A stretch of DNA of 32,000 nucleotides from an uncultured Methanobacterium sp. (GTDB lineage Archaea > Methanobacteriota > Methanobacteria > Methanobacteriales > Methanobacteriaceae): positions 850,785 through 882,784 of the forward strand of contig OY762552.1 of NCBI GenBank assembly GCA_963666025.1. Direction: 5' to 3'. Numbering within the stretch: position 1 is the stretch's first letter; each line of letters opens with the position of its first letter. The position numbers were made by a program, and so were the translations under genes. The notes beneath the pieces are model-generated. The model was not told the origin of the DNA. It worked only from the letters and a program-made list of their open reading frames with translations, and made no database searches. Positions 27,516 to 29,369 of this stretch are shown here, piece by piece.

Positions 27516-28568
27516 TCATATTTGCCTGCGCAAACAGGGTAAAATCTGGAATAACAACTCCTGAGCATCTTCTGAGTCTTTAACTTTGCGGGCGACGATT
27601 TTTCCCTTGGCAAATAGGGTGATGTTGGTACTATCCATCTCCAGCATGACTATGCCCATCTCTTTGGAGCATTTTACTTTTCCTAATGCTTCCAGTTCAT
27701 AGCCGGTCGCAGGGATGTTTAAAGAGTAGGGAAGTTCTGTTTCGAACATTATCTTATTTTTGTCACCTTTACAAGGTTTATAGATCATCATTTGATCTTT
27801 TGAATCATCCTGCCCACTGATATCCAAAGTTACTCTTCTAAAACCTACTGCCTTGAGTTCTGAATCCAGATGATGCAGTAACCCCCTGTCAATAAGTTTA
27901 TCGACATCTTTCACTTCTATACGGGCCATTCCCTCATCATCCCTCACCCTGACCACCTCAAGACCTGTGAGGTTTTTGATGAGATTTTCAGCATAGGCAA
28001 TGCGGTTTATTTTCCGGAGAGTGATTGGTTTTCCAGTGGGGATTCTAGTGGCAAGACAGGTAGTTGAAGGGTTATAATCCATATTCTTCTGTTTTAAAAC
28101 TTCTCTCACATCAGAAGATGTAAATCCTGATTTTACCAGGGGTGTTTTAACGTCTTTTTCTATATTAACCATTATCCCCGGCCGGTCCTCCATCAGATCA
28201 CTGATGTTGGTTCCATCAACCACCACCTCATACAGTTCTTCTTCTGCTATTTTTTCCAGTATCTGGTGCATTTTCAGCTTGCACACATAACACCGGTTAG
28301 GAGGGTTTATTTGAAATGCGGGTTCTTCCAAAAAGTTTTCACGCACGATCCGATGTTTGATCCCTATTTTTTTGGCGATCTCTTCCGCATTCTGGACACA
28401 TTCTGTAGGCATGACCCCATTATCCACAGTAACTGCCAGTGCATCCTCTGCCACTTCTTTTGCAATTAAGGCCAGTAATGTGCTGTCAGCTCCACCGGAG
28501 AATGCAACAACCACATGTTTCCCGTGAAGATAATCCCTTAATTTATCCATCTTTACTTTGATATCCAT
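27516..28568 (-). CDS. larE: LarE-family PP-loop ATP pyrophosphatase / sulfur transferase with an extra C-terminal domain
   Basis: PP-loop [52 protein letters not shown] and [12 protein letters not shown] match L. plantarum LarE block by block (from memory). Cys93/Cys96/Cys171 (RCYVCK...TTCLATR) are present. About 98 further residues follow the LarE core. Confidence 0.8.
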
Positions 28569-28580
28569 AAAATATCACGT

Positions 28581-28686
28581 TAATTCCTGAATAATTCCTG
28601 AATTCCAGTATTATGCTCAATTTCAGGATTATAGTTAATTCCAGTATTATATTCGCTTAATATATAGTAATTCCAGTATTATATTC
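28581..28686. repeat. Tandem/direct repeats between tfuA and the larE-like gene
   Basis: TAATTCCTGAA x2 (28581-28602). TAATTCCAGTATTATATTC at 28636-28654 and 28668-28686, with a partial copy at 28600-28618. Confidence 0.85.
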
Positions 28687-28727
28687 ACCTAATCTCAATA
28701 AAAATGTGGAAAACATTTTAAAGAACC

Positions 28728-29369
28728 TTAAACCATGTTTTTAATGTACTCTAACACTTTTCGGGCATCTTCTGCCTTAACATCAACTTGGTTTTTGTCT
28801 AAAAAATCTTCAAGTTTCTGAATTTTATCTTCTTCCAGGCCAGAATCCTTTAAAACACGAGGATATGTTCTTTGAGGATAATAAATATTTTTAGCAGTTT
28901 GGTACAGTGTTTCAACATCAGTGGCGGTGATTATACCCTCTTTTTCTGCCATTTCGAAGTTGTGATTCATACTCACCAGGGCTTCACAAAGAAGTTCATG
29001 AGTCACTGGATTAAAAACAATGGCCACATCATCATCAGATTCAATTAATCCATCTCGATACTTCTGGTAAACAGTTCCGATTCCGATCATACCAGCGTAG
29101 TCCAGTTCGGCTGATCTAAGGGCCCCCATACTGGACCCTCCCACCACTTTAATACCAGCTTCCAGAGCTTTGAGTATCTCCCGGTGGGAAACAGCAGGTT
29201 TTTGGTAGAAAACACCATCAATTATCCCGATGATATCTGGAGGGTCGTTTAAAAGAATGGTCACATCATCTCTAGCCACGGGGGAATGATACTCCGCATC
29301 CAAAATTTTTTGAGCCTCTTTTAATGGTAGTGAAGGGCCTATAAATACCACAATTCTTTTTTTATCCAA
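28728..29369 (-). CDS. tfuA: TfuA-domain protein (YcaO partner in peptide backbone thioamidation, McrA thioglycine)
   Basis: IVVFIGPSL...[55 protein letters not shown] is the characteristic TfuA domain. The TTG start is supported by a GGTGGT SD 3 nt upstream. Confidence 0.88.

Follow-up and report, generated by a model that had tools for sequence, protein, structure and literature searches.

The closest described system for tfuA is the YcaO-TfuA thioglycine system of methanogens (PMC5589413; PDB 6xp8). According to PMC5589413, methanogens that have both ycaO and tfuA carry them together at one locus. TfuA is reported to hydrolyse ThiS-COSH by means of a Ser-Lys pair (Liu et al. 2021, as related in passages of PMC13185837 and PMC13063428). 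For larE, the nearest characterised enzymes are the [4Fe-4S] LarEs of M. maripaludis (8cnz, 8cp3, 8cp4) and T. maritima (PMC9283937). IscS is a proven sulfur donor for the T. maritima LarE, which was tested with the E. coli protein (PMC9283937). In a third system TtuA is loaded by the thiocarboxylated carrier TtuB (PMC9283937).

We analysed a locus where a tfuA gene without adjacent ycaO lies beside larE, in a complete 2.95-Mb Methanobacterium-like genome. Its proteins have their nearest named relatives in Methanobacterium. The window is the whole stretch of DNA that was analysed (32,000 nucleotides). To our knowledge, TfuA has one known client. An earlier note on this DNA had described tfuA as paired with a LarE-type enzyme instead of ycaO. 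We prefer, with a probability of about 0.62, to see an inherited gene order that holds two conventional enzymes: a [4Fe-4S] LarE that serves the nickel-pincer pathway, and a TfuA that works with a distant YcaO. This reading is based on gene content, gene order, motifs and fold. The chemistry, the cluster and the client are carried over from characterised relatives.

The tfuA-larE locus

The features of the locus are the following.

20664-27122, plus strand: convergent ancestral block of carB, amidohydrolase, USP, CBS and 'dn' genes
26673-27122, plus strand: 'dn', a gene of 149 aa without Pfam or NCBIfam match
27516-28568, minus strand: larE, 350 aa, TIGR00268 at 209 bits
27804-28568, minus strand: catalytic core of LarE, residues 1-255, with the PP-loop, the Cys triad and the substrate-phosphate residues
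27516-27803, minus strand: C-terminal part of LarE, residues 256-350, a single TBP-fold domain by predicted model and structure comparison
28569-28727, no strand: tfuA-larE spacer of 159 bp, with three 26-nt direct repeats at 28600-28693
28728-29369, minus strand: tfuA, 213 aa, a methanogen TfuA, NF033432 at 297 bits
29370-29728, no strand: AT-rich spacer of 359 bp upstream of tfuA, a rearrangement junction by gene maps and parsimony
29729-30304, minus strand: HD-domain gene, TIGR00295
30460-30972, minus strand: tfe, transcription factor E alpha, NF004910 at 211 bits, part of the incoming block

The tfuA gene is located upstream of larE on the same strand, and the HD-domain gene upstream of tfuA. 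The spacer between tfuA and larE is long (159 bp, versus a class median of 30 bp). Its repeats are 69-100% identical to the reference copy and are possibly local duplications or a regulator site. The promoter scan was of sigma-70 type, which is uninformative for an archaeal host. The 'dn' gene, convergent to larE, is kept across most Methanobacteria and lost in genus g8.

TfuA and the thioamidation genes

TfuA matches NF033432 well above the cut-off (297 versus 235 bits). It also matches PF07812 and PDB 6xp8 (E 5.6e-51). In an alignment of 148 TfuAs, Ser80 and Lys198 are invariant, and this invariance suggests that they are probably the Ser-Lys catalytic pair. Where ycaO is not adjacent, TfuA still has all of the invariant residues, these two included, and no new substitution is common to such TfuAs. 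A divergence of stand-alone TfuAs was considered and rejected, as no change is specific to that group. Judged from its sequence, this TfuA is canonical and bears no sign of a changed job. It has Cys128 where 98% of TfuAs carry Ser, and Asp34 and Ser86 replace the usual Gly and Ala. In several genomes (L104, which is G028; L248; L284) tfuA is broken into two ORFs.

The earlier note was right that the window holds no ycaO. The genome's single ycaO is intact and lies outside, about 1.25 Mb from tfuA. There are also two McrA, three ThiS and two ThiF genes in the genome. Hence none of the known thioamidation genes is missing.

The catalytic core of LarE

LarE matches TIGR00268 above its curated cut-off (209 versus 150 bits). 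The PP-loop SGGADS occupies residues 24-29, and Cys93 (CYVC), Cys96 and Cys171 are present. The adjacency of tfuA to a LarE with these cysteines is thus as the earlier note described it, with a gap of 159 bp. The note had also placed Cys171 at the position of the sacrificial Cys of L. plantarum. The cysteine is there, but it aligns one residue past Cys176. Such a one-residue shift of the third Cys is reported for the [4Fe-4S] LarE class (PMC9283937). The note's assignment to this three-Cys class finds support in the motif triad, in the shift and in the best structural match, the M. maripaludis [4Fe-4S] LarE 8cnz (E 6e-27, 35% identity). A sacrificial LarE of L. plantarum type, with a single active-site Cys and no CxxC, is ruled out by C93 and C96. 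If LarE is an ordinary enzyme of this class, the NCBI label 'sacrificial' is wrong for the class.

[quoted passage not shown] The motifs are conserved across 144 LarEs, with R or K at position 207. The LarE tree broadly tracks the host phylogeny. By these criteria LarE shows no sign of a changed job. The best reading is an ordinary LarE of the [4Fe-4S] class, whose cluster and activity would be those of its characterised relatives.

The nickel-pincer pathway and its client

This larE is the only one in the genome. A genome-wide search located ycaO, thiS, larB and larC, the last two elsewhere in the genome. It found no larA (PF09861) in the 99.8% complete genome, 24 kb of which lay outside the search. 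Among 101 genomes of the class there is no full-length larA, and partial matches of 50 residues occur in 3/101. A lactate racemase (lar) system with a LarA client was rejected, as the searched part of the genome yielded no larA homolog.

Across the class, larE is present in 196/201 genomes, ycaO in 200/201, tfuA in 197/201, TIGR00300 in 200/201 and larC in 100/101. The TIGR00300 protein of this genome matches the C-terminal part of cyanobacterial Alr4995, known as AgrE (E 8e-118). PMC13759103 lists an ornithine cyclodeaminase from Methanococcus, and a nickel-pincer-dependent ornithine cyclodeaminase is cited in a passage of PMC13524815. We infer that the latter belongs to the TIGR00300 family. 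By this analogy, the nickel-pincer client is likely the TIGR00300 protein, an ornithine cyclodeaminase of AgrE type for proline synthesis. Five DUF362 matches in the genome are alternative candidate clients. A low-GC metagenome lineage (L214-L216:4989-8734) has no tfuA close to ycaO, and there a TIGR00300-like gene is found two genes away from ycaO.

These data bear on the proposal that LarE supplies or installs the McrA sulfur in place of YcaO, or that TfuA and LarE together thiolate some new substrate as a system of their own. The absence of ycaO from the locus speaks for it, as does the lack of larA. In one tfuA-less genome (G001) ycaO is directly before larE, and the extra domain of LarE could bind a protein substrate. 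Nevertheless, ycaO is nearly universal in the class, and the active site of LarE is unchanged with respect to the LarEs that make the pincer cofactor. The co-occurrence of larC and TIGR00300 is almost perfect, and the pincer pathway therefore needs the single larE. The chemistry also differs: adenylation by PP-loop enzymes is directed at carboxylates, while the phosphorylation by YcaO is directed at an amide of the backbone. We consider this proposal very improbable. There is no support for LarE standing in for ycaO, which is intact in this genome and lies upstream of tfuA in 19/27 genera. Nor does it fit as a branch feeding MCR thioamidation: a [4Fe-4S] LarE takes up sulfide and is not a donor, and the flow would run in the opposite direction. 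A distinct TfuA-assisted thiolation, the other suggestion of the note, finds no support in the conserved pyridinium-nucleotide-binding residues of LarE or in the canonical TfuA.

The C-terminal domain of LarE

This LarE is about 95 residues longer than the solved LarEs, a feature that the earlier note did not mention. The excess at the C-terminus measures 68-108 residues in 104/104 Methanobacteria LarEs, compared with 1-40 in 40 LarEs from outside. The extension was modelled with a pLDDT of 88. In structure comparison with TBPs, the model gives Z 12.2 (rmsd 2.8, 93 aligned), 11.4 and 10.8, against 8.1 for the best non-TBP. PF00352 is weakly matched in 46/51 members, with a score of 19.8 that is under the cut-off of 22.9. 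By its predicted fold, the extension is a single TBP repeat.

Relatives of this domain are found as stand-alone proteins, behind PF04060 Fe-S domains and in archaeal PAPS-reductase-like proteins; judged by shape, ThiF proteins have one as well. The shape match to the ThiF cluster has a TM of 0.70, without a link at the sequence level to the E1-fused copy. No second copy of the domain was found in this genome, and the genome's own ThiF gave no match. The stand-alone and PF04060-fused single TBP-fold proteins (P0138, P0155, P0158, P0115, P0120) carry a conserved PC motif and two further Cys, and are largely unannotated.

The domain family has three conserved Cys, at positions 266 (YKPC), 289 and 300. 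In this LarE they are Cys266, Gly289 and Cys300. The first one is kept in 67/67 covered relatives other than LarE. In several genera, host-associated and thermophilic ones, the Cys of the domain have disappeared although the fold is still there. The Cys are therefore not essential for LarE. As the best reading, the domain is a putative accessory specific to the class, for docking, oligomerisation or metal/sulfur binding.

Gene order in the Methanobacteria

Gene-order maps were made for 95 loci in 28 genera, and tfuA is present in 27 of the sampled genera. The ancestral order is M50 peptidase, ycaO, tfuA and larE, facing dn, CBS, USP, amidohydrolase and carB. The ycaO gene is near tfuA, just upstream, in 63/95 loci and 19/27 genera. 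These genera extend to both further families of the order, and their usual arrangement is ycaO-tfuA-larE. In 8/27 genera the two genes are split. In this genus and five others tfuA is preceded by tfe and the HD gene, and ycaO sits elsewhere, with pth2 next. Two more genera have other junctions.

The order ycaO-tfuA-larE is thus ancestral in Methanobacteria, and a rearrangement common to six genera removed ycaO. The stand-alone tfuA is a product of this rearrangement, because the maps show ycaO before tfuA in the ancestral order. The split corrects the generalisation in PMC5589413 of one locus in methanogens. The HD gene was rejected as a partner of TfuA, being adjacent to it in only 6/27 genera. 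It was brought there together with tfe by the rearrangement, and there is no evidence of a functional tie. In genome G001, the abutment of ycaO and larE is most simply explained by a deletion of tfuA.

The pair tfuA-larE is kept in 82/95 Methanobacteria loci, far beyond chance. The recurrent linkage that the earlier note suggested looking for does exist, although at background level. We used the convergent block from carB to dn as the background control, and its unrelated neighbours are equally kept: dn-CBS in 77/89 loci, CBS-USP in 72/87 and USP-amidohydrolase in 73/78. Parsimony puts the losses at up to 8 for tfuA-larE, 2 for ycaO-tfuA and 2-5 for the dn/USP/amidohydrolase neighbours. These counts come from a tree of TfuA and CBS with 85 taxa, which is short and weakly resolved. 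Several tfuA-larE losses may reflect one mobile larE copy. In 24/81 adjacent pairs tfuA and larE overlap.

The earlier note had named, as findings that would speak against it, a larE accompanied by larA, larB and larC, and a tfuA-larE pair unique to this genome with ycaO-tfuA adjacent elsewhere. By and large these findings did turn up: larB and larC are present, this larE has no second copy in the genome and keeps its pyridinium-nucleotide-binding residues, and ycaO-tfuA adjacency is seen elsewhere. The exceptions are larA, which was not found, and the tfuA-larE adjacency, which is not unique to this genome.

The linkage outside the Methanobacteria

The survey around this genome returned only Methanobacteria; from the Methanococci and Methanopyri, M. 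jannaschii alone was included, as a presence control. The controls M. jannaschii, H. volcanii, T. maritima and S. elongatus have LarE but no TfuA. Among 58 named loci outside Methanobacteria, none has LarE near ycaO-tfuA, with a flank of up to 6 kb and many contigs shorter than this. Weak 'LarE' matches near Methanomicrobiales ycaO (30-38 bits, far below the 150+ of true LarEs) were taken for other PP-loop proteins and not counted.

Within 6 kb of ycaO-tfuA, larE was found in 0/39 genomes of the Methanomassiliicoccales group (the order of the Methanomassiliicoccus isolate). In the Halobacteriota group (the phylum of the Methanoculleus isolate) it was found in 5/69, with 0.38 expected. The arrangements in these five genomes number about three, with P about 0.007 when three are counted and 0.06 when two are: larE is beside thiS-thiF-ycaO-tfuA, or beside iscS, iscU, sufS and fdhD, or, together with larC, opposite ycaO-tfuA. 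An obligate TfuA-LarE system is ruled out by the local background of the linkage and by the genes being apart in 64/69 and 39/39 outside genomes. The complex prediction for LarE and TfuA scored 0.00, which is no verdict and counts neither for nor against.

It could be argued that the neighbourhood is a pure accident, an ancestral juxtaposition with no functional basis, and that the outside clusters are coincidental. The conservation at background level and the 0/39 of the Methanomassiliicoccales group agree with this. However, the neighbours of larE in other lineages are repeatedly sulfur-relay genes, and we give this explanation hardly any credit.

Sulfur supply of LarE

In Methanomicrobiales-like genomes the larE gene clusters with thiS-thiF-ycaO-tfuA, and one Methanosarcinales-like genome has it clustered with ycaO-tfuA. 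In Methanobrevibacter-type genomes with larE away from tfuA, larE is usually directly before thiF, with thiS and fdhD nearby. One other genus also has this larE-thiF module with thiS and fdhD. Equally often, larE clusters with cysteine desulfurases, ThiI or larC. Its neighbours thus include sulfur donors of every type, which fits a sulfur consumer and does not single out TfuA. The re-clustering of larE with thiS/thiF, desulfurases and ycaO-tfuA suggests a shared sulfur supply, and a supply common to TfuA and LarE is a plausible sulfur link of the pair.

The relocated larE-thiF module (L328-L339, L129 and L141, from genus g4 and one g8 genome) lies near thiS, fdhD and genes for a GMC oxidoreductase and gshA-like and uvrA-like proteins. 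In at least one genome (G138) it is a second larE copy. The g8 copy nests among g4 sequences, which suggests that the module may have spread horizontally. A sulfur supercluster of about 9 kb (L378:5483-14683) holds tfuA, ycaO, thiS, thiF, iscU, iscS, larE, sufS, fdhD and a further PP-loop gene. Another group of genomes (L384-L389) has ycaO-tfuA and a sufS-like desulfurase gene in divergent orientation, with no larE.

A shared relay is the alternative to be taken seriously, although it is less likely than the preferred reading. ThiF would load ThiS, and TfuA would free sulfide from ThiS-COSH both for YcaO and for the open iron of the LarE cluster. Otherwise ThiS-COSH would load LarE directly, as TtuB loads TtuA. 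The TBP domain would dock the carrier or TfuA, or hold sulfur on its Cys. LarE would still make the pincer cofactor, and co-regulation would maintain the order. The independent clusters of larE with thiS-thiF-ycaO-tfuA or ycaO-tfuA in outside lineages and the larE-thiF module argue for this relay. So do the TtuA-TtuB precedent (PMC9283937), the fusion of a TBP-like domain to ThiF/MoeB enzymes (PMC2948915, PMC3597702) and the first Cys of the domain, kept in all the covered relatives other than LarE. Nevertheless, desulfurases, ThiI and larC are neighbours just as frequent, and the proven donor of T. maritima LarE is IscS. The Cys of the domain are lost in the very lineages that carry the larE-thiF module. 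Besides, the genes are apart in most outside genomes, and the tfuA-larE adjacency does not exceed the background.

In a narrower form, the ThiS-thiocarboxylate/TfuA relay for McrA would also reload the [4Fe-4S] cluster of LarE in Methanobacteria, through the Cys-bearing TBP-fold domain as a docking or sulfur-holding site. We regard this as tentative and rather doubtful. If true, TfuA would release sulfide for more than one pathway and so connect the maturation of MCR with the synthesis of the nickel-pincer cofactor (and of proline). Three features point to a specific candidate donor pair for [4Fe-4S] LarE: the order ycaO-tfuA-larE across the class, the larE-thiF-thiS module and the TBP-fold domain.

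In the preferred reading of two conventional enzymes, both consumers of sulfur, TfuA would hydrolyse the ThiS-thiocarboxylate and supply sulfide to the single YcaO for the McrA thioglycine. It would work in trans because the rearrangement moved ycaO 1.25 Mb away. LarE would be the cell's only nickel-pincer sulfur insertase. It would adenylate the carboxylates of the LarB product and swap them for sulfur, taken from sulfide bound to a [4Fe-4S] cluster on C93/C96/C171. LarC would then insert nickel, and the AgrE-type ornithine cyclodeaminase (TIGR00300) would be the likely user of the cofactor. The adjacency of the two genes would go back to the ancestor of Methanobacteria, in which ycaO-tfuA-larE stood in a block that rearranged slowly. 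At its origin, this block was probably a cluster of genes that use sulfur. The following observations count against the reading: the 5/69 outside clusters of larE with ycaO-tfuA, the 24/81 overlaps, the relocated larE before thiF and the ycaO-larE abutment in G001. If the reading holds, the value of the locus is in annotation only.

Comparison with known systems

In literature titles and abstracts, we found no link of LarE with TfuA/YcaO in methanogens, and LarE is absent from PMC5589413. The literature examined yielded no thiocarboxylated-carrier donor for any LarE. The work on TBP-like domains (PMC2948915, PMC3597702) yielded none fused to LarE. The extra LarE domain is under-described and at present unannotated.

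The locus resembles the YcaO-TfuA thioglycine system (PMC5589413; PDB 6xp8) in its canonical TfuA with the invariant Ser and Lys. The genome also has one YcaO, plus ThiS, ThiF and McrA. The difference is that ycaO and tfuA are one locus in PMC5589413 and 1.25 Mb apart here.

With the [4Fe-4S] LarEs of M. maripaludis (8cnz/8cp3/8cp4) and T. maritima (PMC9283937), this LarE shares the SGGxDS motif, the CxxC-C triad, the substrate-phosphate residues and the fold (TM 0.88 over the target, 35% identity). Unlike them, it has the additional TBP-fold domain of 95 residues. Its gene adjoins tfuA rather than larB/larC, in a genome without larA.

The TtuA-TtuB 2-thiouridine system (PMC9283937) is alike in having a PP-loop enzyme with a three-Cys [4Fe-4S] cluster, loadable from a thiocarboxylated carrier. 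It differs from LarE in its tRNA substrate and belongs to a different family.

A cysteine-containing TBP-like domain was reportedly named 'CCTBP' by Burroughs et al. in 2009. TBP-like C-terminal tails are described on ThiF/MoeB E1 enzymes (PMC2948915, PMC3597702). The LarE domain resembles these tails as a single TBP repeat with a conserved N-terminal Cys, fused to an ATP-dependent sulfur enzyme, and may be related to them. The domain of the LarE family differs from them in having up to three Cys.
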